From positions 93,940-157,939 of the forward strand of contig JAPPDF010000080.1 of the NCBI GenBank assembly GCA_028875575.1: 64,000 bases of DNA, in the 5' to 3' direction. The notes under the pieces are model-generated. The model saw only the letters and a program-made list of their open reading frames with translations. It did not search any database and was not told the DNA's origin. The position numbers and the translations under genes were made by a program. How positions within the stretch are numbered: position 1 is the first letter of the stretch; every line of letters starts with the position of its first letter. Source of the DNA: Acidobacteriota bacterium (GTDB lineage Bacteria; Acidobacteriota; Terriglobia; Versatilivoradales; Versatilivoraceae). Positions 2,201 through 55,656 of the stretch are shown piece after piece.

Positions 2201-4372
2201 ATGATGTCTTCTCGACTCTGCCATCGTGTCTTCATCCGCCCCGTAGCCTTCTGGCTGATCTTGAAATTGATGGCTCCGGCTTCTGCGTCCGGCTCGCCAC
2301 AGAGGCCGCCGATCGATCCCGATTCAGCCAAGGAATCGCAGCCATCCCCACCCTTTACCGTCAGAGTGCCGGTGAACACCGTGTTGGTGAACGTCACTGT
2401 CACCGACAAAGCCGGGAAGCCGGTCACAGATCTGACTATCGATGACTTCACGCTTTACGAAGACGACAAACGTCAAGAGATTCAAAGCTTCGAGCTGGAG
2501 TCCGGCCGGCCGATCGTCGGTCCGGAAGCGGGGCATTCAGCCAGCGACCAGGCTGGAGGGCAAACTCCGCGGGTGCGATCTCCAGAGGACATCCAGGGTG
2601 AGCCAACCCGCCTCATCAGTTGCTTCATTGACGACCTGACTGCGCACACTCCCAGGTACTATGCCTGGACCGTCTCTGCGCTGAAAAAATTCGTCGCAGA
2701 AGAAATGGGGCCTCATGATCGGGTGGGCATTTTCTCGGCCTCCGGGAACGTCCGAATACCCTTTACCAACGACCGCAAGCAATTGCAGGACCGGATTGAC
2801 GATCTAGTACCAGGGAATCTGCAACTGTCCCGTCCTCTCCTGCACAGAGAGTTTGGATTTTCAGTCATCAGGCGCATCCGGGCGGCTATTCGTAGGCTCC
2901 TGGCAAGTCTGGATCAGCATCTTCTCTTCCTGCGGCATGTCAGGGCGAACAAGTCATTGATCCTTCTGTCCCAAGGATTTGTTCCAGGGCCGGCAATGCG
3001 ATGGAGGCTGGATCGGTTGATCGACCAGGCCCTGCGATCCCGCGTGACCCTCAACACCGTCGACATGAAGGGCCTTCACACCGCGAACCTGGGCCGATAC
3101 CGAGTCCTCTTGGACCGCTACCTGGAACAGCTGGCCGTGGACACCGGGGGCATCTATTTTCGTGACAGCAACGATCTCTTCGAGGGCCTCAGACAGATCC
3201 ACAACGCCCGGTCCTTCTACTATGCGCTCTCCTACACTGCCCCCGATCCGGAGCCCAGCGGCAAATATCACAGGATCAAGGTGGAAGTGGACCGGCCCGG
3301 CCTGACACTCGGACACCGCAAGGGCTACTTTGCGCCCCGGGAAAAACCGTCCCTTGAGAACAGCAAGAACAAGGATCTTCAGCTCGCCCTCGAAGCACCG
3401 GTCGATTTCAACCAGATTCCGGTGCAATTGGACTATGAGTCTTCTCGGCTCAACGAGGATCGCTATCGCTTGAGCGTGTTGACCCACGTCAAGATCGAGG
3501 GGGTGCAATTTCTTCATCAGGAAGGGAAACACCGGAATCTGCTTCATCTGGTCACAATGGTTTACGACCAGAACGACGAGCACGTGGAAGGTTCCGAGCA
3601 GAAGGTGGAACTCAATCTAAGCGAGTCCAGCTATCTCACCATGCTCGATCACGGATTCACTTCCAAAACGGACGTGGAACTTCCTGCCGGCCAGTACAGG
3701 ATCAAGTCCATAGTCCGAGAAGGCAATCAGGCCAGGATGGGATCACTTGAAGAGACGGTCAAGCTTCCCATCCCGGAGAGGGAGGCAAGCCCCCCGGGCC
3801 CAATGGCAAAAGCAGAAGTCGTGGAGACGGCCAGGCCATCCGTTCCGGAGAGCGGAGCGGGAGCGAGTTCCGCCCAGGCAGACTTTGCAGAAGAAGAACT
3901 CGTTCCTTCCCCTTTCCCGGATGGCCTGGGAGGCGGTAATCTGGTGCTGAGCCAACAGCTCATTCCACTGGCTGATCTGAGCGGCGAACTGCGGCAAAGC
4001 CTGTTGGAGGACAGCGACTCGCTGATCTTCAAGGATATCCTGATTCTTCTTCCGATGGATGATCAGATCGACCGCAATTACCCGGTCACGATCTGTTACA
4101 GGCTTTACAACATCAACTATCCCGTTGAGAGCGATGGGATGACGGCTCAGATCCAACTCGCCGATGAAAGCGGCCGGGGCAGCCGATTCCCCCCGGTTCG
4201 TTTAGGGAAAGGCAGAACCCAGTCCCGGAGATCCGGAACTGTCGATGTGGGCTTTAACCTCTCCTTCAAAGACGTGGAGCCCGGCAGATACAAGCTGACT
4301 TTGTTGACGCGGGCCCCGGCAGCCGGCCGGCAAGCAGTAAGTTTCGAAACCACCATCATGGTCGTGGAGTAG
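2201..4372 (+). CDS. VWA domain-containing protein with VWFA-related Acidobacterial-type N-terminal domain, secreted
   Basis: ORF 2135..4372. ATG-ATG at 2201 precedes a signal-like segment (VAFWLILKLMAPASASG). PFTVRVPVNTVLVNVTVTDKAGKPVTDLTIDDFTLYEDDKRQEIQSFE fits the Acidobacterial VWFA-related domain pattern. A VWA-like core follows (LISCFIDDLT...DRVGIFSASGNVRIPFTND). Confidence 0.7.
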   Translation: MMSSRLCHRVFIRPVAFWLILKLMAPASASGSPQRPPIDPDSAKESQPSPPFTVRVPVNTVLVNVTVTDKAGKPVTDLTIDDFTLYEDDKRQEIQSFELESGRPIVGPEAGHSASDQAGGQTPRVRSPEDIQGEPTRLISCFIDDLTAHTPRYYAWTVSALKKFVAEEMGPHDRVGIFSASGNVRIPFTNDRKQLQDRIDDLVPGNLQLSRPLLHREFGFSVIRRIRAAIRRLLASLDQHLLFLRHVRANKSLILLSQGFVPGPAMRWRLDRLIDQALRSRVTLNTVDMKGLHTANLGRYRVLLDRYLEQLAVDTGGIYFRDSNDLFEGLRQIHNARSFYYALSYTAPDPEPSGKYHRIKVEVDRPGLTLGHRKGYFAPREKPSLENSKNKDLQLALEAPVDFNQIPVQLDYESSRLNEDRYRLSVLTHVKIEGVQFLHQEGKHRNLLHLVTMVYDQNDEHVEGSEQKVELNLSESSYLTMLDHGFTSKTDVELPAGQYRIKSIVREGNQARMGSLEETVKLPIPEREASPPGPMAKAEVVETARPSVPESGAGASSAQADFAEEELVPSPFPDGLGGGNLVLSQQLIPLADLSGELRQSLLEDSDSLIFKDILILLPMDDQIDRNYPVTICYRLYNINYPVESDGMTAQIQLADESGRGSRFPPVRLGKGRTQSRRSGTVDVGFNLSFKDVEPGRYKLTLLTRAPAAGRQAVSFETTIMVVE

Positions 4373-4864: not shown

Positions 4865-6037
4865 TCAGGAACACTGGCGTTTCCTCCCCTTCCAGTGGAC
4901 CCAGGACTGGATGCCTGTCGTCACCAGCACTACCAGGGCTACCGTGTGATAAGGCGCCCGGGACCCCAGCCACAGGCTCGCCAGGCCCCCGCCCAATGAG
5001 CCCGCGGCAAAGCCCACCGCCAGGCTGGCTTCGTGCATTCCGCTGACCAGTCCCTGCCGCTTCCGGTCGAAGGTGGTGGTGCTGTAGAAGATGCTGGAAA
5101 AGTAGTTGTAGCCCGACAGCAATGCAAACAGGATCAGGCCCAAAAGCAGGAACGGGACGGTTCGACTGTAGGCGAGCAGCATCAGTCCGGCCAGCGCGCA
5201 CAGTTGCGCCAGCAGGGCGGCCGAAAAACGGTAACGCCAGAAGGTCAACCAGAACATTAATGAATAGGTGACGATAACCATCGACCGGTTGGTGGCCACC
5301 ATCAGGCCGTGGATGGGAGCGCTGATCTCCAGTTCGGTTGCCAGATGGGGAAAGAGATGAATGATGACGCTCACCCCCATGGCGCTGGCCACGTTGGCCA
5401 GCCATCCCAGGTAGACGAAGGTGCGGGCGGACTTGGGAACCACGGCCATCTCCCGCTCGGAGGGAGGCAAGGCGGCGGGAGTGGGAGCAGCGATCGGGAA
5501 ACCGGTCCGAACCAGCACCCCCAGCATCAGCACCAACCCCACCAGCAGGGGCAGGGTGGGACCCCACGGAAAGAGCCAACCTCCCGCGGCCTGCCCCGCG
5601 ATCATTCCCAGGTTCCAGGACAGGCAGAACCGGAAGAGCCGCCGGCCCTGCAGCCTGGGGCCAAGCTGCTCCAGTCCTCCCCGCGTCAACCAGGCGATGA
5701 CCGGGGGAAGCATCACCCCGACCGAGGCGCCTCCAATCGGCGCATACAGGTAAAACCATTGATGGTCGGAATGCCATTGGATGCACGCCAGCAGGACCAA
5801 TGCCTGGGCGGTGGCGCCGACAGCGACGACGCGGCGCCCGCCCCAGACGTCGGAAGCCCAGCCTCCGATCGGAGCCCCCAGGCCGAAGCCAAGCGAGGAA
5901 ACCGCCCCCAGGATGCCCAGAGCCATCAGGCTGGCCTGCTGTTCGGCCATCAGCCGGGTCACCGTGAAGACGAACAACATGTAGGCGAAGTCCGCCGACA
6001 GGGCGATCCAGTAGAATTTCAGCTCGCGCTTAAGCAT
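4865..6037 (-). CDS. MFS transporter
   Basis: 390 aa with about 12 predicted hydrophobic helices. MFS-like loop motif (GGWASDVWGGRRVV). ATG at 6035-6037. Confidence 0.75.
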   Translation of the reverse strand: MLKRELKFYWIALSADFAYMLFVFTVTRLMAEQQASLMALGILGAVSSLGFGLGAPIGGWASDVWGGRRVVAVGATAQALVLLACIQWHSDHQWFYLYAPIGGASVGVMLPPVIAWLTRGGLEQLGPRLQGRRLFRFCLSWNLGMIAGQAAGGWLFPWGPTLPLLVGLVLMLGVLVRTGFPIAAPTPAALPPSEREMAVVPKSARTFVYLGWLANVASAMGVSVIIHLFPHLATELEISAPIHGLMVATNRSMVIVTYSLMFWLTFWRYRFSAALLAQLCALAGLMLLAYSRTVPFLLLGLILFALLSGYNYFSSIFYSTTTFDRKRQGLVSGMHEASLAVGFAAGSLGGGLASLWLGSRAPYHTVALVVLVTTGIQSWVHWKGRKRQCS

Positions 6038-6051
6038 ATGTAACCAGAAGA

Positions 6052-6429
6052 GTTATCCACGAAGGACCACTAGTGAATTGTTGAGCCTATCGCCAAAATC
6101 GTAGCGGGGCAGGTTCTCTTGCCGGCAATCTTGAGGATCTGCCTGTTTCGAAATCGGGTGCGACCTGGTAAAAAATGCTGGCTAACCACAAAAAGCACAA
6201 ATGTCACAATTTATTTTTTGTGCCTATTGTGGCCATTCCCGGTAAACGTCCCGCTGCCGAATTTTGCAAGAGGCCCTGTTGATTGTCGAATTCTGATTGT
6301 TGATTGGGGGATCAGGACACCCGATTTTGCGGAAATTCCAGAATCTACAATAAGCCTTCTGCAGAGTTTTGACCTGGGTGCGACTTCCTGTCCCTTGGTG
6401 GATCCCCTTCGTAGTCCCAAAGGGATAAC
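6052..6429. repeat. Word-array element A1 (10-nt/7-nt word arms, AT-rich hairpin core)
   Basis: Termini GTTATCC (6052-6058) and GGATAAC (6423-6429) are reverse complements. Left arm is GTTATCCACGAAGGACCACTAGTGAATTG and right arm is CTTGGTGGATCCCCTTCGTAGTCCC. Core 6092-6270 is ~80% identical by eye to 11281-11466. It includes the palindrome TTGCCGGCAA, an imperfect 16-bp hairpin (6186-6201 / 6217-6232) and an internal heptamer array GTTGATT GTCGAAT TCTGATT GTTGATT (about 6277-6305). Confidence 0.7.
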
Positions 6430-6488
6430 CCCGCAAATGGCCCCCCTTTTGCACTATCATAGCCCCGTTTGTAAACCGGGGGGACGGT

Positions 6489-7205
6489 GTGCCGGTACTC
6501 AGCGCCGAGGGAGTCGGAAAGACCTACACCCAGGGAGAGGCCCCCGTGGTTGCCGTGCGGGAGGTGAACCTGTCCCTGGAAAAAGGAGAGTTCGTCGCCT
6601 TGACGGGACCCTCCGGGTGCGGCAAGTCGACCCTGCTGCATCTTTGCGGGGGCATGGATTATCCCACCCGGGGACGCATCTGGCTGGACGGTACCGATCT
6701 CGGGAGCCTGGACGAAGGCCGGCTCACCCGAGTCCGCCGCCGTCAGATCGGCTTCGTCTTTCAATCCTTCAATCTTCTGCCCACCCTCACCGCCCTTGAA
6801 AACACGGCCCTGCCCCTCATGCTGGACGGCGTATCCCCTGACGTCGCCAGGCGGAAGGCCACCGGGTTGCTCGAGCGCCTGGGCCTGCTCCATCGTCAGG
6901 GCCATTACCCCCAGCAGCTCTCGGGAGGAGAGATGCAGCGGGTCGGCATCGCGCGGGCGGTGTGCCACGACCCCTTGCTGCTTCTGGCGGATGAGCCCAC
7001 CGGAAACCTGGATTCCGCCAACGGGGCCGATGTGCTGGAGCTTCTGCAGGCACTGAACCGCTCCCTGGGAGTCACTGTGCTGCTGGCCACCCACTCCGCC
7101 GAGATGGCGGCTGCCGGCCAGCGATTGTTGCACATGGTGGATGGCAGGATCGAGGCCGACCTCCAGTCCCGGCGGCCCATTGCCGGACACGATCCAGGCA
7201 ACTAA
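6489..7205 (+). CDS. ABC transporter ATP-binding protein (MacB/LolD/AttE-like)
   Basis: GTG start. Walker [10 protein letters not shown], signature [14 protein letters not shown], Walker [13 protein letters not shown]. Confidence 0.9.
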
Positions 7206-9778
7206 TGCATCTCTTCCGGACATTCATCCTGCGCCGCCTCCGCAAGGAAAAGCTGCGCGCTCTGGCAACCGTGTTGGGCGTTGCCCTGGGCATTGCCGTG
7301 GTGCTGGCGGTTCGGATGGCCAATCAGAGTTCTGTCCGCAGCTTCGAGACGGCCCTGGAAATGGTGGCCGGCAAGACCTCGCTGGAGATCGTCGGCTCAG
7401 GTCAAGGCCTGAGGGAAGATCGGCTGCTGGAGCTGGACTGGCTGGAGCAGTACGGACAGATCAGTCCTGTCATTGAAGGAGAAGCCAGGGCTTCACTCCC
7501 TTCGGGAACCACCGAATGGCTGAAAATCCTGGGGGTCGACATTCTCAGGGATGAGACCCTTCGGGACTACCGCCTGGTGCGTTTTGCCGATCGGCAACAG
7601 TCCCCCACCCCCAGGGAGTTTCTGCAACTGCTCAGCGACCCCGGGGCCATCGTGCTGACGCAGAAACTGGCACGACGGCACAACCTGGATCTCGGCTCCG
7701 GCCTGGACCTCGACATCGGGGATCGCCGGGAAACCTTGACGGTGCGCGGTCTGCTTCTGGACCGGGGGCCGGCCCGGGCTCTGAATGGAACCTTCGCCCT
7801 GATGGACATCGCAGCCGCCCAGTGGCTCTTCGGGCGTCTGGGTCGGATCGACCGCGTCGACCTGCAATTGAAACCCGAGATCTCCATCGACGGTGCCGAA
7901 GCCGCCATCGCCGCCCGGCTGCCGGAGGGATTGGCCGTCCAGCGTCCCTCCCGCCGCGGGCGCCAGGTGGAAAAAATGCTGGAGGCCTTTCACTTCAACC
8001 TGACCGCCCTTTCCCACATCGCCCTGCTGGTTGGCCTGTTTCTCATCTACAACACGGTGTCGCTGTCGGTCATCACCAGGCGCCAGGAAGTCGGGATCCT
8101 GCGGGCCGTGGGCGGCTCCCGGCGACAGGTGGCGGGGTTGTTCCTGGCCGAAGCCGGCCTGCTGGCGGCACTGGGATGCTCTCTGGGCATCCTGCTGGGG
8201 GGCTGGCTGGCCCGCGGCGCCCTCGGACTGACAGGCGCCACGCTGGATCGGCTCTACATCCGATCCGCCGCCGAACCGGTGTCGCTCGGTCCGGAACACC
8301 TGGTCCTGGCATTCGGGGTGGGCATCCCCCTGGCCTTGCTGGCGGCACTGCTTCCCGCCCTGGAAGCTTCACGGGTGGCGCCGACCGAAGCTGTCCGCGG
8401 CGCCGACCGGGTCGAGAGCCGTATCCGCTTGAGCTGGAGGCAACGCTGGCTTCCCCCGATCCTGTCCGCCCTGGCTGTCGGGTTCGCCTGCCTGGATTCG
8501 GTCGACGGCCTTCCCCTTTTCGGCTATGCAGCCTGCCTCGCCACCGTTTTCGCGGTCGCCTTTCTGGTCCCGGTGGTGCTGCATTTCTCAGGGAGGGCGG
8601 GTTCCTGGCTCACCAGGCGGCGGACGGGAGTGGAGGCCCTGCTGGCCAACGCCAACCTCAGCGGATCAATACCCCGCATTTCGATCTCGGTGGCCGCCCT
8701 GGCCGTGAGTCTTTCCATGCTTACAGCCATCGCCGTCATGATCGGCAGCTTCCGGGAGACGGTCCAGTACTGGGTGGAGCAGACGCTGAGAGCCGACCTC
8801 TTTGTGGCCCCGGCCACGCGTTCCAATGTCTATTCGGAGTCGACGCTCTCTCCCGAAGTCGTGCGACTGATATCCACAAACCCCCGGGTGGCTGCCGTCG
8901 ACCCCTTCACCAGTTTCAACATCGACTATCAGGACCGCAGGGTCTTGCTGGGATCCGGTGACTTCGAGGTGCACCTGAGCCGTTCAGGGCTGCTCTTCAA
9001 GGCTCCACGCCAGGGGCGATCGGCCATGAGAGCCGCCATCGGCGAGGACGCGGCGGTGGTTTCGGAAAGCTTTGCGCTCCGGCATCGGAAGGCGGTGGGA
9101 GACCGGCTGGTGCTCAACACGGACCAGGGGCAGCGTGCCTTTCGAGTGGCCGCCGTCTACTACGACTACTCGAGCGATCAGGGAGTCGTGGTATTGGACC
9201 GGAGCACCTTCCGCAAGTACTACGGAGACCGGCCTCCCCGCAGCCTGGCGGTCTATCTGAAGGCGGGACTCGACCCGGAACGGGTCCGCTCGGAAATGAT
9301 TGCGGGACTCCCGCCCCATTCGCGTCTGTTCGTGCATACAAATGCTTCTCTTAGGGCGGAAGTCCTGCGAATCTTCGACAACACCTTTACGATTACCTAT
9401 GCTCTGGAGATTATCGCCGTGGCCGTGGCCATCCTTGGGGTGGCCACCACCCTGGTCACCCTGATACTGGACCGCAAACCGGAGCTGGCCCTGCTGCGCT
9501 GGGCCGGAGCGGAGCAGCGGCAAATCCGGAAGATGGTGATCATCGAGGCGTCGCTGTTGGGGGCGGTGAGCCAGGGGCTGGGAGTGGTGGCCGGGATTCT
9601 GCTCTCTCTGATCCTGGTCTTCGTGATCAACGTCCAGAGCTTCAACTGGACCATCCAGTTTTACCTGCCGGCGGGCTTCCTGCTGCAGTCGTCCCTGCTG
9701 ATCCTGCTGGCCACAACCCTCTCGGGCATCTATCCCGCCTACCGTGCCGGGCGGATTCCGTCGGCCCGGGAAGCCTGA
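7205..9778 (+). CDS. ABC transporter permease with two FtsX/MacB-type modules (AttF/AttG-like fused)
   Basis: 857 aa. Two 4-TM FtsX-like blocks are separated by large extracytoplasmic regions. The start overlaps the upstream stop (TAATG). Confidence 0.85.
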   Translation: MHLFRTFILRRLRKEKLRALATVLGVALGIAVVLAVRMANQSSVRSFETALEMVAGKTSLEIVGSGQGLREDRLLELDWLEQYGQISPVIEGEARASLPSGTTEWLKILGVDILRDETLRDYRLVRFADRQQSPTPREFLQLLSDPGAIVLTQKLARRHNLDLGSGLDLDIGDRRETLTVRGLLLDRGPARALNGTFALMDIAAAQWLFGRLGRIDRVDLQLKPEISIDGAEAAIAARLPEGLAVQRPSRRGRQVEKMLEAFHFNLTALSHIALLVGLFLIYNTVSLSVITRRQEVGILRAVGGSRRQVAGLFLAEAGLLAALGCSLGILLGGWLARGALGLTGATLDRLYIRSAAEPVSLGPEHLVLAFGVGIPLALLAALLPALEASRVAPTEAVRGADRVESRIRLSWRQRWLPPILSALAVGFACLDSVDGLPLFGYAACLATVFAVAFLVPVVLHFSGRAGSWLTRRRTGVEALLANANLSGSIPRISISVAALAVSLSMLTAIAVMIGSFRETVQYWVEQTLRADLFVAPATRSNVYSESTLSPEVVRLISTNPRVAAVDPFTSFNIDYQDRRVLLGSGDFEVHLSRSGLLFKAPRQGRSAMRAAIGEDAAVVSESFALRHRKAVGDRLVLNTDQGQRAFRVAAVYYDYSSDQGVVVLDRSTFRKYYGDRPPRSLAVYLKAGLDPERVRSEMIAGLPPHSRLFVHTNASLRAEVLRIFDNTFTITYALEIIAVAVAILGVATTLVTLILDRKPELALLRWAGAEQRQIRKMVIIEASLLGAVSQGLGVVAGILLSLILVFVINVQSFNWTIQFYLPAGFLLQSSLLILLATTLSGIYPAYRAGRIPSAREA

Positions 9779-9803
9779 CAGTCAAGGAAATGGAACCGTG
9801 TTC

Positions 9804-11015
9804 ATGGTGTACCGCCGGGACGGTGGGGAGTTCTGGTCGCGTCGCTTTCCCGACAAGAAGCCTCATCCCTCGACGAAATTCCCGATCCCGCTCCGGCTCC
9901 GGCCACGACTCCTGCTGGCCGCGGCCTTGATTCCCTGCCTGCTGGCGGGCGCGGGCTGGGCCCAGACCTGGCGGCAGGCCCGGCCCGGCTACCGCATGCA
10001 GTTTCCCCGCGACCACGCCAGCCACCCGGAGTACCGGATCGAGTGGTGGTACTACACGGGAAATCTGGCGGACAGCAACTCGCGGCGGTTCGGCTTCCAG
10101 CTCACCTTCTTTCGGGTGGGTGTCCGGAACCGACCGGAAAACCCTTCCCGCTGGGCGGTAAGAGACCTCTTCATGGCCCACTTGGCGTTGAGCGACCTCA
10201 AGACCGGCGGCTTTCATTTTGCCGAACGGTTGAACCGGGCCGGGCCGGGATGGGCCGGGGCTTCTACCGAAACCTACCGAGTCTGGAACGAGAGCTGGGA
10301 GGCCGAGTTCGACAGCGGCGGCCGCCACCGGCTCCAGGCACGGGACGAGGACTTCGGGATCGACCTGGAGCTGGAACCCGGCAGGAAACCTCTCCTGCAC
10401 GGCCAGGCCGGACTCAGCCGGAAAGGAGCTCAGGACGGGAACGCCTCTCACTACTATTCTCTGACGCGCATGCCCACGCGCGGCCGAATCTGGGTTGACG
10501 GCCGGAAATTCGAAGTCAGCGGGCTGAGCTGGATGGACCATGAATTCGGCACCAGCTTTCTGGAACCGGACCAGATCGGGTGGGACTGGTTCGCCCTCCA
10601 GTTGGACAATGGCCAGGACTTGATGCTGTTCCAACTGCGGAGGTCCGACGGCCGGCTCGACCCCCATTCCGGCGGGACTCTGCTGGAGGCCTCCGGACAA
10701 TCCCGTGCCCTGGGCAGGTCCGACTTTACTTTGGATCCGGTGGGGACCTGGCAGTCTCCCCACAGCGGAGCCCGCTATCCGATCCAATGGCACCTGAGCC
10801 TTCCCGGCCAGAGACTCAGCCTGACGGTGACCGCCGCCCAACCGGACCAGGAGCTGCGCACGCCGAGCTCTACCCAGGTCACCTACTGGGAGGGCGCCGT
10901 GGTGGTGACCGGCACCCGCGGCGCCAATCCGGTTACAGGCCGGGGATATCTGGAGATGACCGGTTACGCCGGCCAGTCGATGGGCGACGTGTTTCGGGGA
11001 GGCAGTGGAGATTGA
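9804..11015 (+). CDS. AttH/CrtC-like lipocalin-type (hydroxyneurosporene synthase-like) domain protein, secreted
   Basis: FPRDHASHPEYRIEWWYYTGNL plus the WMDHEFG motif are typical of the AttH/CrtC family. Signal-like LLLAAALIPCLLAGAGWA. ATG at 9804 (GTG at 9798 is also possible). Confidence 0.75.
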   Translation: MVYRRDGGEFWSRRFPDKKPHPSTKFPIPLRLRPRLLLAAALIPCLLAGAGWAQTWRQARPGYRMQFPRDHASHPEYRIEWWYYTGNLADSNSRRFGFQLTFFRVGVRNRPENPSRWAVRDLFMAHLALSDLKTGGFHFAERLNRAGPGWAGASTETYRVWNESWEAEFDSGGRHRLQARDEDFGIDLELEPGRKPLLHGQAGLSRKGAQDGNASHYYSLTRMPTRGRIWVDGRKFEVSGLSWMDHEFGTSFLEPDQIGWDWFALQLDNGQDLMLFQLRRSDGRLDPHSGGTLLEASGQSRALGRSDFTLDPVGTWQSPHSGARYPIQWHLSLPGQRLSLTVTAAQPDQELRTPSSTQVTYWEGAVVVTGTRGANPVTGRGYLEMTGYAGQSMGDVFRGGSGD

Positions 11016-11048
11016 AGTGTGAAGGATGAAGGGTGAAGGGTGAAAAGA
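11014..11048. repeat. Solo heptamer word array starting inside the stop codon of the AttH-like gene
   Basis: GAAGTGT GAAGGAT GAAGGGT GAAGGGT GAAAAGA, five phased 7-mers. No inverted partner nearby. Confidence 0.7.
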
Positions 11049-11118
11049 GGTTAGCCGGGAGCTGAGCTCCCGTGCGGATCACTCGAGGAAAACCCGGCGG
11101 ACGTTTATGAAAATGAAC

Positions 11119-11523
11119 CACGAATGAACACGAATAGGCACGAATACACTTGGGCCTCCTTCAACCACAAGAGGCGCCAAAATGCCTCTACAACTCTGTT
11201 GACCTGGCATGACTTCCAGTCATTCGTCGATAACCCCCTCGATGTCGTTTGGCCCACGCCCCAATTGACAGTTCGAGCATTTTGCAAAATTCGCAACGGG
11301 GCAGGTAATCTTGCCGGCAAACCTGAGGTCTTGCCTTTTTCAATATTGGGTGCGACCTGGTGAAAAATGTTTTCCAACTACAAAAAGCACAAAAGTCGCA
11401 AATTGTGTTTTTGTGCCTTTTGTGGCCGTTCCCGCTAAACGTCCCGCTGCCGAATATTTCAAAATGATCAATTCATCAATCCGATAATTGATGTTCATTC
11501 GTGTCCATTTGTGGTTCGTCGTT
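11119..11523. repeat. Word-array element A2 (10-nt word arms, AT-rich hairpin core)
   Basis: Left arm CACGAATGAA CACGAATAGG CACGAATACA (11119-11148). Right arm TTCATTCGTG TCCATTTGTG GTTCGTCGTT (11494-11523) is the reverse-complement word type. Core 11281-11466 is homologous to 6092-6270 and carries the conserved hairpin 11378-11394 / 11409-11425. Confidence 0.7.
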
Positions 11524-11593
11524 TCTCTGAGTGGATGTGTGTTTTCCCGAGATTGTTGGTCTGAGGCGTCGCCTCGCTAAGAGCCAAGCCTAA

Positions 11594-14095
11594 ATGGAAA
11601 TCGACGATACTCCCATCCTGCAGGCCGTGAATATCCGGCGCACTTATCCCGGAGTCGTGGCCCTTGGCGGCGTTTCCCTGGACTTGAATCCGGGAGAGGT
11701 GCACGCCCTGGTCGGCGAGAACGGCGCCGGCAAGAGCACCCTGATCAAGATCATCTGTGGGGCGCTGGCTCCCGACACAGGGGAGTTGTTCTTTCAGGGC
11801 CTTGCGGTGGCTTGGCCCAACCCCGTCGCCGCCCGAACCCGGGGGATCGTCACCGTCCACCAGGAACCTGAGCTGTTCCCCACCCTTTCGGTTGCCGAGA
11901 ACATGGCCATGGCCAGTGGGCTGCCGTTGCGCGGCTCCGGACTGGTGGATTGGAACCGTGTGAACCGGGAAGCGCGGGAAACGGTCCGGCAGATCGGGGA
12001 GAGGATCGACGTCCGTCAGCCAGCCTCCCGTCTCAGCGTGGCTCATCGCCAGATGATCCAGGTGGCGGCGGCCATTCTGCAGAATGCCAGGGTGGTGGTG
12101 CTGGACGAGCCCACCAGCGCCTTGAGCGAAGAGGAAGCCCGCTGGTTGTTCCAGCAGATCGAGCGTTTGAAGGCGGGCGGAGCCGGCATCCTCTACATCT
12201 CCCATCGCCAGGAAGAGATCTTTCGCCTGGCCGATCGTATTACGGTCCTGCGGGACGGACTCAGGGTGTGGACTCGGGCCAGACAGGCCGTCGGTCCCGA
12301 GGAGACCATCGAGGCCATGGTTGGGCGGCCGGCTTCGACCGTGGGAGCTTCTCCCGCCGGCCAGGCAGGCTCGCCCACTCCCAAGGAGGGTCCCGTCCGC
12401 TTGCAGGTCAGCGGGTTCACCGACCGAAGTGGTCGCTTTCGACAAATCGATCTGGAGGTGGGCTCGGGTGAAATCGTGGGGATCTATGGCCTGGTGGGGG
12501 CCGGGCGTAGCGAGTTTGCCCGGGGCGTGTTCGGTCTGAGGCCCGCCGACGGCCTGGTCCGGATAGACGGCAACGCCTGCGAGATTCGCCGGCCCCGTGA
12601 AGCGCTGCAGGCCGGTATCGCCTACGTCCCCGAGGACCGCCTGAGCCAGGGACTCTGCCTGGGCCTGCCCGTTCGCTCCAACGCGGTGCTTTCGACCCTG
12701 AGACGCTGGACTCGGGGCCTCTTGGCCAGCAGGACCCGCGAGCAGCAGGCGACGCGCCTGGTCGCCGGACGGCTGGCGGTGCGTTACCGCTCCACCGAGC
12801 AGCCGGTCCAACAACTGTCAGGCGGCAACCAGCAGAAAGTGGTCCTGGGGCGCTGGCTGTTGGCTCAGCCCAAGGTGCTCATCCTGGACGAACCCACTCG
12901 CGGAGTGGACGTAGGAGCCAAAGCCGAGATCCACCGGCATTTGCGCCTCCTTGCGGGGGAGGGCTGCGCCATCCTCCTGATCTCTTCGGAACTGCCCGAG
13001 GTCATGGAACACGCCGACCGGGTGGTGGTCTTTCGCGAGGGGGAAATTGGCGGGGAGTTCGATCCCCGCCAGACCGGCCCCGCCCGGGTCGCCGCCGTGG
13101 CCCTGCCCCGCCAGAGCACGGAGGAGCTGTCCGCCGCAGAGTCTCGATCCGCCGAATCCCGCTTTCGGGGCCGCTCCTTCAACGAACTGGCGCTGCTAAT
13201 TTGCGTAGCGGGGCTCGGCCTGTGGCTGACGGTTTCCACCGAGGGGTTCAGCCTGTTGAACCTGCTGACTCATGCCTCTCTTTGGGCCATTCTGGGACTG
13301 GCAGCCGCCTCGGTCATCGTGGGCCGGGGTATCGACATTTCCATCGGCTCGATGGTTGCTCTGTCGGCGGCTTCCGCCGCCATGGTCCTGAAGCTGCCCT
13401 ATTCGGCCGAGATCTTGATTCCGGTCGCCATTTTGGCCGGACTGCTGGCCGGAACGGCGGCAGGCGTTCTCAACGCGGTTCTGGCGCTGCTGGGAGGGCT
13501 GCACCCTATCGTGGTCACTTTGGGGACCCTGACCATCTATCGCGGATTGGTGATCGCCATGCTGGGGGGGAAACCCATGACCGGACTGCCGCCCGAGTTC
13601 GGCCGGCTGGCCATCGATCCGGCAACCGGGTTCCGGGGCGCGGTGGCGGTGGCTGTCCTGGTCGTCCTGCTGGTTTATCTCTGGATGGCGCACACCCGCA
13701 GCGGCCGGCAGGTCTACGCACTGGGCTCGTCCCCCCGAGCCGCCGGACTGCTGGGTCTTTCCAGGGCACGCCTCTGGCCGGTCACCTTTGGTCTGGGTGG
13801 ACTGCTGGCCGGCGTGGCCGGAGTGCTCCAGCTCTCCATGGGCCAGCAGATGCAAGCCCGCCTTGGAGCCGGCTGGGAGCTGAGCGCCATCGCCGTGGCC
13901 GTCATCGGCGGCGTGGGAATCACCGGCGGCCGCGGAACGGTGCTGGGTGTGGTGCTGGGCGCTCTCCTGCTGCGACTGGTCAACAGCGCTCTGGTACGCT
14001 GGGGCGTCTCGGATCAACAGACGGACCTGGTGGTGGGCAGCCTGATCCTGGCGGCGCTGCTGCTGGATCTGGCCTGGCGGGGGTGGAAGCGATGA
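11594..14095 (+). CDS. CUT2-type sugar ABC importer, fused double-NBD ATPase plus permease
   Basis: Single open frame of 833 aa. NBD1: GENGAGKST, LSVAHRQMIQVA, VVVLDEPTSAL. NBD2: GLVGAGRSEF, LSGGNQQKVVLGRWL, ILDEPTRGVD. A linker is followed by an RbsC/AraH-type permease (GIDISIGSMVAL, multiple TM helices). Confidence 0.85.
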   Translation: MEIDDTPILQAVNIRRTYPGVVALGGVSLDLNPGEVHALVGENGAGKSTLIKIICGALAPDTGELFFQGLAVAWPNPVAARTRGIVTVHQEPELFPTLSVAENMAMASGLPLRGSGLVDWNRVNREARETVRQIGERIDVRQPASRLSVAHRQMIQVAAAILQNARVVVLDEPTSALSEEEARWLFQQIERLKAGGAGILYISHRQEEIFRLADRITVLRDGLRVWTRARQAVGPEETIEAMVGRPASTVGASPAGQAGSPTPKEGPVRLQVSGFTDRSGRFRQIDLEVGSGEIVGIYGLVGAGRSEFARGVFGLRPADGLVRIDGNACEIRRPREALQAGIAYVPEDRLSQGLCLGLPVRSNAVLSTLRRWTRGLLASRTREQQATRLVAGRLAVRYRSTEQPVQQLSGGNQQKVVLGRWLLAQPKVLILDEPTRGVDVGAKAEIHRHLRLLAGEGCAILLISSELPEVMEHADRVVVFREGEIGGEFDPRQTGPARVAAVALPRQSTEELSAAESRSAESRFRGRSFNELALLICVAGLGLWLTVSTEGFSLLNLLTHASLWAILGLAAASVIVGRGIDISIGSMVALSAASAAMVLKLPYSAEILIPVAILAGLLAGTAAGVLNAVLALLGGLHPIVVTLGTLTIYRGLVIAMLGGKPMTGLPPEFGRLAIDPATGFRGAVAVAVLVVLLVYLWMAHTRSGRQVYALGSSPRAAGLLGLSRARLWPVTFGLGGLLAGVAGVLQLSMGQQMQARLGAGWELSAIAVAVIGGVGITGGRGTVLGVVLGALLLRLVNSALVRWGVSDQQTDLVVGSLILAALLLDLAWRGWKR

Positions 14096-19286: not shown

Positions 19287-19330
19287 GTATTTTCCCCCTT
19301 CATTGCTTTCCGGTCTGAAGCAGCGGTTGA

Positions 19331-19894
19331 CTAGCGCGCCAATCCGAACGTCACCGACAAACTGCTACGTGTAGTGTATCTGACGCCTATTGTGTAGCCG
19401 GATCTCTTCCCCTTGATGGTGAACAGCATTCCGCCTCCGGAATTGAAATAATTGGCCGTCTGGTAATCGATAAAACTGTCGGAGAACGCCTGATCCGGAT
19501 TCTGTCCGGGATTGAATCTTCTGCAGGCACCCGGTATGCGATCCACGCACCTCGCGCTCCCGGCCCAGCCGACCAGTCCATAGGTAGTCCAGGTGACTCG
19601 GGACGACAACGGGATGGAAACGCCAATGGGAAAGTTCATCTCCAACTCAGACTCAAAATCGGAAGGTGGTTTCGGCTTGTTCAACGCCAACTCCATTCCA
19701 AGATAGAGCCCTTTGCGCCTCCCGACACCCGCGCCCAATCCAATACTTCTCTGACCTCCGACCAGGTAAGCGTGCGAAAAGGAGGGTTTGCCCGTCTCAG
19801 ACGCCTCCTGGCCAAGTACCCATGACTCGGAACAGATCAGAGCCATCCCGGAAACAATCACAATCGTTAAACTTCGGCTGAGTCTCGGATTCAT
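19331..19894 (-). CDS. Small secreted beta-barrel-like outer membrane protein, paralog 1
   Basis: 187 aa. Signal-like IVIVSGMALICSESWVLGQ, alternating beta-strand-like pattern, conserved Cys pair (CVDRIPGAC). SD GAAGGGGG upstream of the ATG. Confidence 0.6.
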   Translation of the reverse strand: MNPRLSRSLTIVIVSGMALICSESWVLGQEASETGKPSFSHAYLVGGQRSIGLGAGVGRRKGLYLGMELALNKPKPPSDFESELEMNFPIGVSIPLSSRVTWTTYGLVGWAGSARCVDRIPGACRRFNPGQNPDQAFSDSFIDYQTANYFNSGGGMLFTIKGKRSGYTIGVRYTTRSSLSVTFGLAR

Positions 19895-19958
19895 CGTTCA
19901 CCCCCTTCACAACGTCCTTTTTCCCCTTCATTGCCGGCCGGTCTGAAGCGTCGCCCGG

Positions 19959-20525
19959 CTAGAAGGTGATTCCGAAAATCATGGAGAAACCGCTGCGCCT
20001 GGTGGCTCTGACGCCTATCGAGAAGCCGTGCTTTTTCCCCCTGAAGGCGAACTCCATACCGCCTCCGCCATTAAAATGAGTGGCCTCCCTGTAATCGAGC
20101 AGGCCGTCGGAGAACCGATGTTCCGGATACTCATCGGGCATGAAAATTCTGCAGGACCCCGGTACGCGGTCTATGCACTTGGAACTCATGGCGTAGCCGA
20201 GCAGCCCGTAGGGTGTCAAGGTGACCCGGGACGACAAGGGAAAGGAATAACCAATCGGAAAGTTGATCTCCGTCTCGGACTCGAATTCGCTGGGTGGATT
20301 CGGGCTTGGATTCCACACCATCTCGATTCCGCCATAGGGCCCCTTGTATTTGCTGTGGCTCACACCCCATCCGACACTCCGGCTACCTCCGATCAGGTAG
20401 AAGCGCCCAAAGCCGGGTTTGTCATTTTCGGACGGGTCCTGGCCTAGCGCCCAAGACTCGGAGAACATCACAGCCATCCCGGAAACAATTACAACTGTGA
20501 AACTTCCGAAGAGACTCAGCTTCAT
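19959..20525 (-). CDS. Small secreted beta-barrel-like outer membrane protein, paralog 2
   Basis: 188 aa and a paralog of 19331..19894. Shared blocks: VIVSGMA, SESWxLGQ, FESExExNFPIG, PLSSRVT, CxDRxPGxC. C-terminal aromatic residue (GITF). Perfect SD AAGGAGGTG upstream. Confidence 0.65.
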   Translation of the reverse strand: MKLSLFGSFTVVIVSGMAVMFSESWALGQDPSENDKPGFGRFYLIGGSRSVGWGVSHSKYKGPYGGIEMVWNPSPNPPSEFESETEINFPIGYSFPLSSRVTLTPYGLLGYAMSSKCIDRVPGSCRIFMPDEYPEHRFSDGLLDYREATHFNGGGGMEFAFRGKKHGFSIGVRATRRSGFSMIFGITF

Positions 20526-20906
20526 TGTTCACCTCCTTCACAACGTCCTTTTCTCCGGCCCCACCCGACCGATCAACCGAACGGCCTCGGGAAAAGACAG
20601 GCTGTTGTCCGTGAGGTCGTTACTAAGGAGATGGCCGGCTATACTCTTCTGTTGCCTTTAGACTGGTTCCGGCGTGGGCCACGCAAGACACCTGCACACT
20701 TGGATGACCTGAGTGTAGATTGATGGTGTTCACCTGACATTCGGCTATCATGGCGGTGGTCGCTCCGCAGTCCTGCCGGCATTTGATTAGTGACAAGCCA
20801 GATTGGACGGGACGGACATACAACCGCCGCCTGGGAAATTGCGTGCGGCTGGTCTCGCTGGAGATTTCTTGGACCAGTCGACAATCACGCCAGAAAGGGG
20901 ATTCTC

Positions 20907-23882: not shown

Positions 23883-24040
23883 GGGATTTCCTTTCCTGCG
23901 GGCAGCTTGAGGATTCCTGCCCTTCTTGCGAGATGGCTGCTTACAGGTTGCAATTATATGCCAGGCGCGCAGTTTGACGGCTGATCGATGATGAAAGCGA
24001 ACCACGAACGGCCCAGACGTCGCGGAATGAAGCCCCACGG

Positions 24041-24236
24041 GAGCGCGGGCGTCCCGCCCGCATGCACTCCCGTTGCCTGCCGCTCAGTTTCCCCGCGATG
24101 GGGCACCCGGGCACCCTGCCGGCGGGAACGGCAGGGGATGGACCGAAGCAGAGTCCTGGCGCCGTTGCCGTTCGAGCCGGGTGGAGGAGATGGGCCAAGC
24201 TGTGCCAGGACTTGTGCGGGCGGGACGCCCGCGCTC
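24041..24236. repeat. Perfect 22-bp inverted repeat pair flanking 152 bp
   Basis: GAGCGCGGGCGTCCCGCCCGCA (24041-24062) and its exact reverse complement TGCGGGCGGGACGCCCGCGCTC (24215-24236). Each arm contains the 17-bp near-palindrome GCGGGCG-TCC-CGCCCGC. Confidence 0.85.
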
Positions 24237-24477
24237 CCGGGGGGACCCTCCTCCCATCACTCTTGCTGCTTGAGGGGGCACGCGCCATCTTGCCGGGCCA
24301 AAGTCCTGCCGGTCGGATCATCTGAGAGCGAAACAGCTTTGTTTCAGGCAAGACACACCTTCGCCAATCGGGGACGAAACGGTGTATCCTTTCCGGTAAT
24401 CTACCAACCAGGACGGGATCGGATTTCGTTCGATGGCGGGCCGCCAGTGAAGAGGCGGCCAGGGAGGATGGGTCAAC

Positions 24478-28550: not shown

Positions 28551-28579
28551 AAACGCGGAGGGACTTGAAAAGAAATAGA

Positions 28580-28624
28580 GTTATCCACGAAGGGACACGA
28601 AGGAAGACGAAGGGCCACTAAGGA
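28580..28624. repeat. Solo class-A-type left arm (decamer word array)
   Basis: GTTAT then CCACGAAGGG ACACGAAGGA AGACGAAGGG CCACTAAGGA. It starts with the same GTTATCCACGAAGG terminus as element A1. Only a degenerate possible partner is seen, near 28905-28935. Confidence 0.6.
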
Positions 28625-30800: not shown

Positions 30801-30956
30801 AGTGGAGAGTGACTAGTGGATAGTGGTTAGTTGTGATTTGATCCGTGCGTCAAGCATCTTGTCGACCTCAGTGCAATGCTCGAGACGTGCATCCAGGTTA
30901 TCAGGCGCTTGCCGGTTACCGAAACCCGCCGCTGACCACTCTTCACTCTCCACCTA
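30801..30956. repeat. Word-array element B1 (heptamer arms)
   Basis: Left arm AGTGGAG AGTGACT AGTGGAT AGTGGTT AGTTGTG (30801-30835). Right arm CCGCTGA CCACTCT TCACTCT CCACCTA (30929-30956). The core shares AGTGCAATG and ATCAGGCGCTTGCC (30900-30913) with B3. Confidence 0.75.
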
Positions 30957-33564: not shown

Positions 33565-33754
33565 TTCCTTTCCTCGGGCAGTGTCGTGGGTTAGGGGAGA
33601 GCTGCGAAGCTGCGGTCGACGTGGGTTACCCGGCGAAACGCCACCTACAAGACATCCTTATAGAGCAGCGCAGCTGCGGCCTCGTGTAGCCCCGGGCGGC
33701 AGCCCGGGGTCGTATGGGTCCCGCACCAACCTAGCCGCGAATGCGGCGAATAGG
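33565..33754. repeat. REP-like hairpin unit, copy 1
   Basis: CAGTGTCGTGGGTTAGGGGAGAGCTGCGAAGCTGCGG ... GTAGCCCCGGG-CGGCAG-CCCGGGGTCGT ... GCCGCGAATGCGGCG. Compared with copy 2 it contains an internal ~65-nt extra segment that repeats the GAGCAGCGCAGCTGCGGC motif. Confidence 0.7.
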
Positions 33755-33883
33755 AAGCACCCGTTCGGGAACGCATTGCGTTTCCAAAGATACGCCGCCC
33801 CACGTCACGGATACCTGCCGCCGGCGCTTCGCCGCTCCACTCGAACCACCAGGCCTAACCCCAGTAATCCAACAATTCAAGAA

Positions 33884-34009
33884 ATCCCTTCCCTCCGCAG
33901 TGTCGTGGTTTAGGGAAGAGCAGCGAAGCTGCGGCTCAGGGTAGCCCCGGCTGTCAACCCGGGGTCGTCTGAACCCTGCGCTGCCGCCGCCGCGAATGCG
34001 GCGGATTAG
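33884..34009. repeat. REP-like hairpin unit, copy 2
   Basis: CAGTGTCGTGGTTTAGGGAAGAGCAGCGAAGCTGCGGCTCAGGGTAGCCCCGGCTGTCAACCCGGGGTCGT...GCCGCGAATGCGGCGG. Same order of three GC-rich stem-loops as copy 1. Confidence 0.7.
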
Positions 34010-34102
34010 CAGCCGGGTCGCGGAAACCGCTGCCTCCCCAACACCACGCAAGACAGGTACCGCTTCCTGAGGGTGCAGGTCCCCCGCAGCCACCGCTTCC
34101 GA

Positions 34103-34881: not shown

Positions 34882-35067
34882 AGTGATCAGTGGCTAGTGG
34901 ATAGTGGTCAGTTGTGGTCAGTGGAGCGATTTGGGGGCATACAAGCGCCTGGTGACCTAGTTGCACGCCTTGAAGGACCACGCCGAGATCAACACGATGC
35001 CAAACGCGTCGATCAAAAAAACTAACCACTAGCCACTAACCACTAGCCACTTGTCGGCTATCCACGC
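34882..35067. repeat. Word-array element B2 (heptamer arms, core inverted relative to B1/B3)
   Basis: Left arm AGTGATC AGTGGCT AGTGGAT AGTGGTC AGTTGTG ... AGTGGAG (34882-34926). Right arm CCACTAG CCACTAA CCACTAG CCACTTG TCGGCTA TCCACGC (35026-35067). The reverse complement of the core aligns with the B3 core (..TTGATCTCGGCG..GTGCAA..GGTCACCAGGCGCTTG..). Confidence 0.75.
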
Positions 35068-48961: not shown

Positions 48962-49052
48962 AGTTGGCCGGCGATTCCACGATAAACCCTTCCGAGTGTA
49001 CTTCGGTTTCATCCCGTATGGTCCGCCCGGTCGCTTGAGGCGGGGCCGGCCA

Positions 49053-49223
49053 AGTGGATAGTGGATAGTTGTCAGTGGTTAGTGAATTGATCGATGGGTT
49101 ACGTGGATTGTTGATCTCGGCGCAGTCCGTCAATAAGTGCAATGAGGTCATCAGGCGCTTGCCTGCTCCCGAAATACTCCACTAATCACTGACCACTGAT
49201 CACTAGCCACTAATCACAATCAC
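49053..49223. repeat. Word-array element B3 (heptamer arms)
   Basis: Left arm AGTGGAT AGTGGAT AGTTGTC AGTGGTT AGTGAAT (49053-49087). Right arm CCACTAA TCACTGA CCACTGA TCACTAG CCACTAA TCACAAT CAC (49179-49223). The right arm overlaps the stop codon of the symporter gene (49220-49222). Confidence 0.8.
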
Positions 49224-55330: not shown

Positions 55331-55484
55331 ACATCGATGCACAGGATATACAGGATTTTTTCTGACAGTCCGCCGTCCTGTATTCCTGGAAATCGGCAAA
55401 CCCCCACGCGATCATCGCCAGCGTCGGCTTCCCGTGCAGCAGCGTCTCGTCCTGGTTATCCTGTCCATCCTGTATATCCATGTC
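55331..55484. mobile_element. Word-array element C1 (9-nt word arms), MITE-like
   Basis: ACATCGAT GCACAGGAT ATACAGGAT ... GTCCTGGTT ATCCTGTCC ATCCTGTAT ATCCATGT. The core is homologous to C2. Flanked by A/T-rich DNA (GAAAAAATTA | ... | CCTTTTTTGTTTTTTTATCT). Confidence 0.7.
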
Positions 55485-55502: not shown

Positions 55503-55656
55503 TACATGGATGCACAGGATATACAGGATTTTTGCGAAAGTCCGTTGTCCGTTTTCCCGGAACTTCCGCAAGCCGGTTCCGGATCATCGCCCGAGCCGTG
55601 TTCCGGTGCATGAACCTTTCGTCCTGTGTATCCTGTGCATCCTGTGCATCGATGTT
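55503..55656. mobile_element. Word-array element C2 (9-nt word arms), MITE-like, tandem to C1
   Basis: ACATGGAT GCACAGGAT ATACAGGAT ... GTCCTGTGT ATCCTGTGC ATCCTGTGC ATCGATGT. The outer end CCTGTGCATCGATGT is the exact reverse complement of the C1 start ACATCGATGCACAGG. Confidence 0.7.

Follow-up and report, generated by a model that had tools for sequence, protein, structure and literature searches.

Two AT-rich segments upstream of ABC transporter genes in a sponge-associated Acidobacteriota bacterium are very probably copies of a small non-autonomous DNA transposon (MITE)

Two similar segments upstream of ABC transporter genes

The window (the whole 64-kb stretch of DNA analysed here) is of sponge-metagenome origin and syntenic, at 94–98% identity, with contig L034 of Ca. 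Versatilivorator vitaminiformans. Two of its intergenic regions, each immediately upstream of ABC transporter genes, contain an AT-rich segment. The first lies between a divergent MFS gene and ABC operon 1, whose ATPase and MacB-type permease genes overlap at 7205, and the second is flanked by a CrtC/lipocalin-like gene on one side and a fused ABC ATPase-permease gene on the other; downstream of the latter are genes encoding a permease, then a periplasmic binding protein and then a ThuA-like protein. The features of both regions are as follows.

4865-6037, minus strand: divergent MFS gene
6079-6082: left target-site duplication of copy 1, TGTT
6083-6276, plus strand: copy 1 of the element, 194 bp
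6083-6108, plus strand: left terminal inverted repeat of copy 1, GAGCCTATCGCCAAAATCGTAGCGGG, degenerate with respect to the consensus
6186-6232, plus strand: subterminal inverted repeats of copy 1 (the "hairpin"), with arms CCACAAAAAGCACAAA (6186-6201) and TTTGTGCCTATTGTGG (6217-6232)
6250-6276, plus strand: right terminal inverted repeat of copy 1, CCCGCTGCCGAATTTTGCAAGAGGCCC
6277-6280: right target-site duplication of copy 1, TGTT
6489-7205: ABC ATPase gene of operon 1
7205-9778: MacB-type permease gene of operon 1
9744-11015: CrtC/lipocalin-like gene
11085-11535 (approximate ends), plus strand: composite repeat of ~450 bp, with copy 2 nested inside
11115-11147 and 11492-11521: inverted ends of the composite repeat, GAACCACGAATGAACACGAATAGGCACGAATAC and TGTTCATTCGTGTCCATTTGTGGTTCGTCG, made of CACGAAT-type units
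11275-11469, plus strand: copy 2 of the element, 195 bp
11275-11300, plus strand: left terminal inverted repeat of copy 2, GAGCATTTTGCAAAATTCGCAACGGG
11378-11425, plus strand: subterminal inverted repeats of copy 2, with arms at 11378-11393 and 11410-11425
11443-11469, plus strand: right terminal inverted repeat of copy 2, CCCGCTGCCGAATATTTCAAAATGATC, its outer end degenerate
11594-14095: fused ABC ATPase-permease gene

The resemblance between the two segments had been estimated by eye at about 80% in a first-pass annotation of this DNA, and it is real: the mean column identity of copies 1 and 2 was 86% over ~195 columns (alignment; also repeat families D5/D9). The limits proposed at that stage, 6092-6270 and 11281-11466, marked genuine segments, the true ends of which are slightly wider (6083-6276 and 11275-11469). 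Both copies lie on the plus strand, at 213 nt (6276 to 6489) and 125 nt (11469 to 11594) from the respective ABC_tran gene, in agreement with the shared orientation and the 130–220 nt spacing first described. All the conserved blocks listed then were also found, namely TTGCCGGCAA (6119-6128), GGGTGCGACCTGGT, the pair CCACAAAAAGCACAAA / TTTGTGCC(T/A)TTTGTGG, and GTCCCGCTGCCGAAT, and the AT-richness of the segments was borne out by a GC content of 0.45–0.50 vs 0.63 for the whole window. A repeat search of the 64-kb window revealed no copies beyond these two.

Copy 1 aligned end to end with a 195-bp family consensus at 89% identity, and copy 2 matched it at 92%. In the aligned copies the unit of ~195 bp begins with GAGCYTTTTGCAAAATTCGCAGCGGG and finishes with CCCGCTGCCGAATTTTGCAAAAGGCTC, and terminal inverted repeats of ~26 bp, imperfect and with the consensus GAGCYTTTTGCAAAATTCG(G)CAGCGGG, are present at both ends of every full-length copy. 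The left arm, of ~100 nt, runs from GGCAGG through the palindrome TTGCCGGCAA to the block GGGTGCGACCTGGTGAAAAA, while the right arm spans ~45 nt, and the subterminal inverted repeats consist of CACAAAA(A)G units. No conserved ORF was detected in the alignment, the sole ORF differing in frame and start codon between copies. Copy 1 is bounded by a perfect TGTT duplication, and the flanks of copy 2 show no clean target-site duplication (GTTC vs AATT). Both AT-rich segments are thus very probably copies of a ~195-bp non-autonomous DNA transposon (MITE). The early suggestion of a "mobile-element core" was right as to the mobile element and wrong as to the "core", since both segments are complete MITEs with terminal repeats and duplications.

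Copies in other genomes and at orthologous sites

One genome per species was scanned with a pattern of 19 specified bases, GGGTGCGACCTGGTNAAAAA. The MITE was present in 30 of the 39 loci recovered, all of them from Ca. Versatilivorator, a Terriglobia MAG and other Acidobacteriota MAGs, the remaining loci being chance matches inside genes. The exact 19-nt core alone was found as 13 copies in 12 loci of OX638355.1 and at 14 loci in JAPVWS01. Further copies are carried by the sponge-metagenome contigs LXNI01/LXNJ01, and at least 40 full and partial copies were recovered overall from Ca. Versatilivorator, Terriglobia, other Acidobacteriota MAGs and sponge metagenomes. In the sponge metagenomes X2 and X4 the sequencing depth over the MITE exceeded that of its single-copy flanks by a factor of 29–50, and assembled contigs are interrupted within it.

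The family comprises size variants of 195, 250 (L017), 337 (many OX638355.1 copies) and ~580 bp (L050), all of which have both arms in common and differ in the interior alone. ORF listing of the long variant revealed no transposase ORF, and tblastn with a related transposase gave no match in any variant. A "long" version in OX638355.1 was considered as a full insertion sequence and rejected, as ORF listing and BLAST resolved it into the 337-bp non-coding variant lying amid other repeats. The 337-bp variants (L007, L010, L011, L016, L024, L025, L027, L028, L038; OX638355.1) sit in a mosaic of repeats, with identical flanks in many OX638355.1 copies and a ~140-nt tandem unit in L027; parts of the OX638355.1 mosaic were likewise seen at 24013-24328 and 28572-28622 of the window. 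The left end is missing from several copies (L015 2606-2730, L021 5577-5701, and also L019, L023, L030 and L039), and two independent left-truncated copies share exactly the same first base (ATCGGGTGCGACC...), a coincidence that may point to a favoured site of truncation or to an alternative terminus.

Evidence for transposition came from the flanks of the copies. Among 20 independent insertions, seven have identical 4-bp flanks (ATCA, AATG, AAGG, TGTC, GCAG, TGTT and GAGA) and six further ones agree at three of the four positions. Controls at shifted offsets gave 0–1 matches, and the binomial probability of such agreement by chance was ~1e-12.

Orthologous regions of three related genomes, fetched through the CrtC-like protein, allowed both insertion sites to be compared in their filled and empty states. 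L114 and L115 represent JAPVWS01 and a JGI sample, L116 is a 2.3-Mb contig and L117 is OX638355.1.

Site 1 (MFS gene / ABC operon): filled in the window, L034, L114 and L115; empty in L116 and L117
Site 2 (CrtC-like gene / ABC gene), window: spacer of 579 nt including the MITE
Site 2, L114 and L115: 423 nt of unrelated sequence
Site 2, L116: 83-nt left-arm fragment in the opposite orientation
Site 2, L117: MITE absent, spacer of 93 nt

At site 1, L116 contains GAATTGTTG uninterrupted, where the window reads GAATTGTT-[MITE]-TGTTG; removal of the MITE and of one TGTT from the window sequence restores the L116 sequence around GAATTGTTG. L116 holds another copy, of ~231 bp and reverse orientation, at 3162-3392, between the ATPase and MacB-type permease genes of ABC operon 1, and this insertion alters the C-terminus of the ATPase ORF. 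These differences between filled and empty orthologous sites are what a transposable element would be expected to leave, and they imply that the MITE is not a conserved part of either ABC operon.

The occupancy data bear directly on the proposal, made in the first-pass annotation, that the two segments form a shared cis-regulatory module, be it a leader, a riboswitch-like RNA or an operator array, co-regulating the two ABC operons. That both window copies share one orientation and lie 125–213 nt before ABC genes would fit such a module, but the orthologous operons of L116 and L117, and that of L114 at site 2, do without the MITE.

Neighbouring genes, RNA folding and regulatory readings

The surroundings of the other copies were tabulated with a crude greedy ORF caller, which mis-called some genes (for instance, a spurious antisense ORF was chosen in place of the ABC ATPase gene at copy 1), and only the overall pattern and the Pfam-verified neighbours were used from this table. 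The other copies are intergenic, in both orientations, and lie at 5' ends, at 3' ends or between convergent genes. The neighbours checked with Pfam have unrelated functions: MFS, amidohydrolase, FG-GAP/ASPIC, gluconolactonase, radical SAM, aconitase, esterase, NAD-synthase-like, SSF symporter and enolase-like proteins, among which ABC transporters are not enriched. Such a range of neighbours, on either side and in either orientation, is hard to reconcile with a module dedicated to two ABC operons.

The DNA flanking the MITEs has a GC content of 0.50 vs 0.61 for the loci and is often made of other short intergenic repeats. Insertions land in AT-richer intergenic DNA, frequently within other short repeats, which makes the position upstream of ABC genes a matter of chance at insertion; the placement of the MITE before two ABC operons is coincidental. 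Copy 2 itself is nested inside the composite repeat listed above, of which further instances, with the MITE placed identically inside, were found in L001 (485-946) and L015 (5578-5984). As the outer flanks are unrelated in these cases, the composite seems to have been moved or copied as a unit.

Other features of the surrounding DNA were recorded. Near-tandem modules of 7–8-mers (TGATTGT, GAAGGGT, AGTGGAT, GATGCACAGGAT, CACGAAT, GATGAAT) crowd intergenic DNA, in the window at 6277-6310, 11015-11050, 30801-30849, 34882-34916, 49039-49087, 55331-55360 and 55504-55533. They also flank MITEs in L005, L006, L017, L026, L029, L032 and L039, and MITE copies very often lie within or beside them; the modules may be another repeat class or an insertion hotspot. 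A motif TTGACCTGG-N3-4-GACTTCC-N-GTC(C/A)TT occurs in the window at 6368-6395 and 11198-11225, in the L116 orthologue of site 1, and in L020, L001 and L015. At site 1 it follows the MITE and precedes the start codon of the ABC gene; since it is kept in the MITE-free L116 orthologue, it may be native to the operon, as a piece of the promoter or leader region of ABC operon 1. Neither CTGCCGAATTTTGCA nor the GACCTGG..GACTTCC motif was accepted as a sigma-54 promoter, the GG-N10-GC spacing being a misfit by eye. An extra GGGTGCGAC at 6376 was dismissed as being at chance level (4 matches vs 1.2 expected, with 4 of 100 shuffles reaching 4). Elsewhere in the window, an Rfam match to the Acido-Lenti-1 RNA (33664-33709, minus strand, 42 bits) falls within a ~320-nt tandem unit (33566-33758 / 33885-34013, minus strand, 74–84% identity), the second copy of which is below the Rfam threshold for this RNA. 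Finally, two adjacent minus-strand ORFs of 187–188 aa at 19290-20552 share ~71–73% DNA identity, which indicates a putative tandem gene duplication.

Alternatively, the segments had been proposed to encode an sRNA or leader. Their RNA is indeed predicted to fold well (z-scores of -3.4 and -4.6), a property that would suit the cis-regulatory module too, but stable folding is a trivial consequence of having inverted repeats at the termini and next to them. No Rfam family matched either copy, at the gathering threshold or at E values up to 10, and simple scans of the plus strand detected neither a sigma-70-like promoter nor an intrinsic terminator. From an alignment of 24 copies, RNAalifold predicted only the hairpin and a small stem, with no compensatory changes among 18 pairs and an unfavourable covariation term of +0.52. 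When the full fold was considered, helix 1, formed by the terminal repeats, was paired in 89.5% of cells, and double-sided changes were present in 6 of 78 pairs vs 6–10 in slid controls. The test of covariation that had been recommended for the hairpin therefore gave a negative result. The mismatch noticed in copy 1, where copy 2 was correctly said to have a proper pair, stems from a T-to-A change private to copy 1 of the window, a T being present both in the orthologous L034 copy and in the family consensus; the consensus of the hairpin itself holds a conserved A·C mismatch. Moreover, in the longer variants the hairpin arms are 141–390 nt apart, showing that the tight hairpin is a property of the short deletion variant and not a conserved stem-loop. 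GGGTGCGACCTGGT looks invariant only because copies were ascertained through the search pattern: L068, which was found through its terminus, differs there.

The first-pass annotation had itself stated that a scatter of copies irrespective of gene type and orientation, together with a hairpin free of covariation and of transcription signals, would speak against its regulatory and sRNA readings. This is what was found, and it speaks against both readings. The shared cis-regulatory module, in particular, is very improbable.

A related possibility is a mobile gene for a small RNA, or a MITE that has been domesticated and provides a promoter facing outwards or a structured transcript, so that its copies would do more than spread selfishly. 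In both termini a TTGCAA hexamer, resembling a -35 box and directed outwards, lies 7 nt inside the end, the ~100-nt left arm is well conserved between short and long variants, and contigs of the metatranscriptome X26 hold pieces of the MITE from other loci. However, the fragments present in two metatranscriptomes, including run X26, are diverged pieces of other copies, at most ~90% identical, which read-through or DNA carry-over could explain. With the plus strand devoid of the promoter and terminator sought, covariation absent and the constancy of GGGTGCGACCTGGT accounted for by ascertainment, we consider this possibility unlikely, if slightly less so than the cis-regulatory module.

Terminal sequences, the putative transposase and comparison with known elements

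The MITE is probably moved by a DDE transposase supplied in trans, which would bind the terminal repeats, excise or copy the element, and insert it at a 4-bp staggered cut, the repair of which would generate the 4-bp target-site duplication. A scan of metagenomes with the terminus CGAATTTTGCAAAARGCTC returned 71 loci. Pairs of inverted terminal repeats 0.7–3 kb apart were absent from the genome loci, and among the metagenome loci the one in L086 was the only real insertion sequence. Two homologues of the L086 transposase, examined more closely, belong to further insertion sequences, L112 and L113.

L086 240-1668: insertion sequence of 1429 bp, termini GAGCCTTTTGCAAAATTCG... and ...TTTTGCAAGAGCCTC, TAAT duplication
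L112 948-2868 and L113 948-2878: insertion sequences of 1.9 kb, each with a divergent DUF6788 ORF and a DUF772/DDE_Tnp_1 transposase

The L086 transposase has 375 aa and contains the Pfam domains DUF772 and DDE_Tnp_1. The outermost 19 nt of the MITE are identical to the L086 terminus GAGCCTTTTGCAAAATTCG, and the duplication is of 4 bp in both elements. The termini of L112 and L113 read GAGCC[TG]CTTGC[AG]AAA and their duplications are TATA and ATAT. Homologues of the L086 transposase number in the thousands, some of them bearing the JGI label "IS5 family transposase", and one (L111) comes from an Acidobacteria MAG. For elements of the L111-L113 type, the protein clusters have up to 608 members, which makes this element very abundant in some long-read metagenome assemblies; its transposase reaches neither the IS1182 nor the IS5 cut-off of NCBIfam. 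We consider an IS5/IS1182-like DDE transposase (DUF772 + DDE_Tnp_1) the likely mobiliser of the MITE, although, since the L086 protein scores under the NCBIfam cut-offs of its nearest family, IS1182 (124.7 bits, cut-off 270), and of the next, IS5 (IS5_4, 78.6 bits, cut-off 140), the class that can be claimed is only the broader IS4/IS5-type DDE superfamily.

Searches of the window, the fetched loci and the recognisable Versatilivorator chromosome contigs (P0001, P0092 searches) yielded neither a homologue of the L086 transposase nor an autonomous element with the subterminal arms of the MITE, so that the evidence for this assignment consists of the 19-nt terminus and the length of the duplication. 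All-versus-all BLASTP of the ORFs beside the 19-mer in the other metagenome matches revealed no common transposase, implying that most non-sponge matches to the 19-mer are unrelated or due to chance. On the sponge contigs LXNI01/LXNJ01, at least four other small elements (~170–535 bp) combine the GAGCCTTTTGCAAAATTCG terminus with unrelated interiors. Small elements with this terminus were seen in L047, L053, L087, L100, L071, L098, L075, L059 and L107, one of them (L098 1357-1875) with an exact AGAA duplication. The shared terminus suggests that several MITE families may use one transposase in the sponge community.

The properties of the termini also serve to weigh another identity, that of a REP/BIME-type palindromic repeat mobilised by a tyrosine-type (RAYT) transposase or of an IS200/IS605-like palindrome-associated element. 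The MITE is intergenic, multicopy, hairpin-forming and often found amid other short intergenic repeats, as such elements would be, but these classes have neither long terminal inverted repeats nor target-site duplications, both of which are present here, and the terminus matches DDE-type insertion sequences. The probability of this explanation is practically negligible.

Bacterial MITEs are non-autonomous deletion derivatives of insertion sequences, examples being Correia in Neisseria, RUP in Streptococcus pneumoniae, ERIC/IRU, and Nezha in cyanobacteria. The present element shares with them its small size, non-coding nature, terminal inverted repeats and a short target-site duplication of fixed length, as well as tens of intergenic copies per genome, size variants, insertion polymorphism and nesting in repeats; it shows every structural feature by which a bacterial MITE is recognised. 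It differs from them in constituting a new sequence family, in an uncultivated sponge-associated Acidobacteriota host, with asymmetric arms (~100 nt left, ~45 nt right) and CACAAAA(A)G subterminal units, and in that a co-resident autonomous parent was not found. With the IS5/IS1182-like elements of L086, L112 and L113 it has in common a terminus beginning with GAG and 4-bp duplications, whereas it lacks a transposase gene and shares nothing with them beyond the terminus. Furthermore, their duplications are AT-only (TAAT, TATA, ATAT) and those of the MITE are mixed and less AT-rich, and they come from other metagenomes and lineages. A literature search returned nothing on Versatilivorator, nor on MITEs in sponge Acidobacteria. 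We therefore regard the sequence family as new, and the kind of element as well known.

A more adventurous reading would make the family a portable source of promoters, operators or structured RNA, maybe mobilised by a transposase of an undescribed type. The conserved, asymmetric left arm of ~100 nt and the outward TTGCAA hexamers in both termini are its basis, and an undescribed transposase is conceivable because none was found in the host genomes. We regard this as a long shot, if one with somewhat better prospects than the alternatives above; were it true, insertions before ABC operons would rewire transporter expression in sponge symbionts. The MITE family as such implies no biology of a new kind. 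In practical terms, the two segments and the dozens like them in Ca. Versatilivorator and related sponge-associated Acidobacteriota should be masked as a MITE family in genome annotation and not scored as regulatory or RNA motifs, and the MITE breaks short-read assemblies of sponge symbionts. The terminus common to several small elements points to an IS5/IS1182-like transposase acting in the sponge community. Moreover, insertion polymorphisms of the MITE, one of them inside the ABC operon of a relative, could be used as population markers in strain typing.
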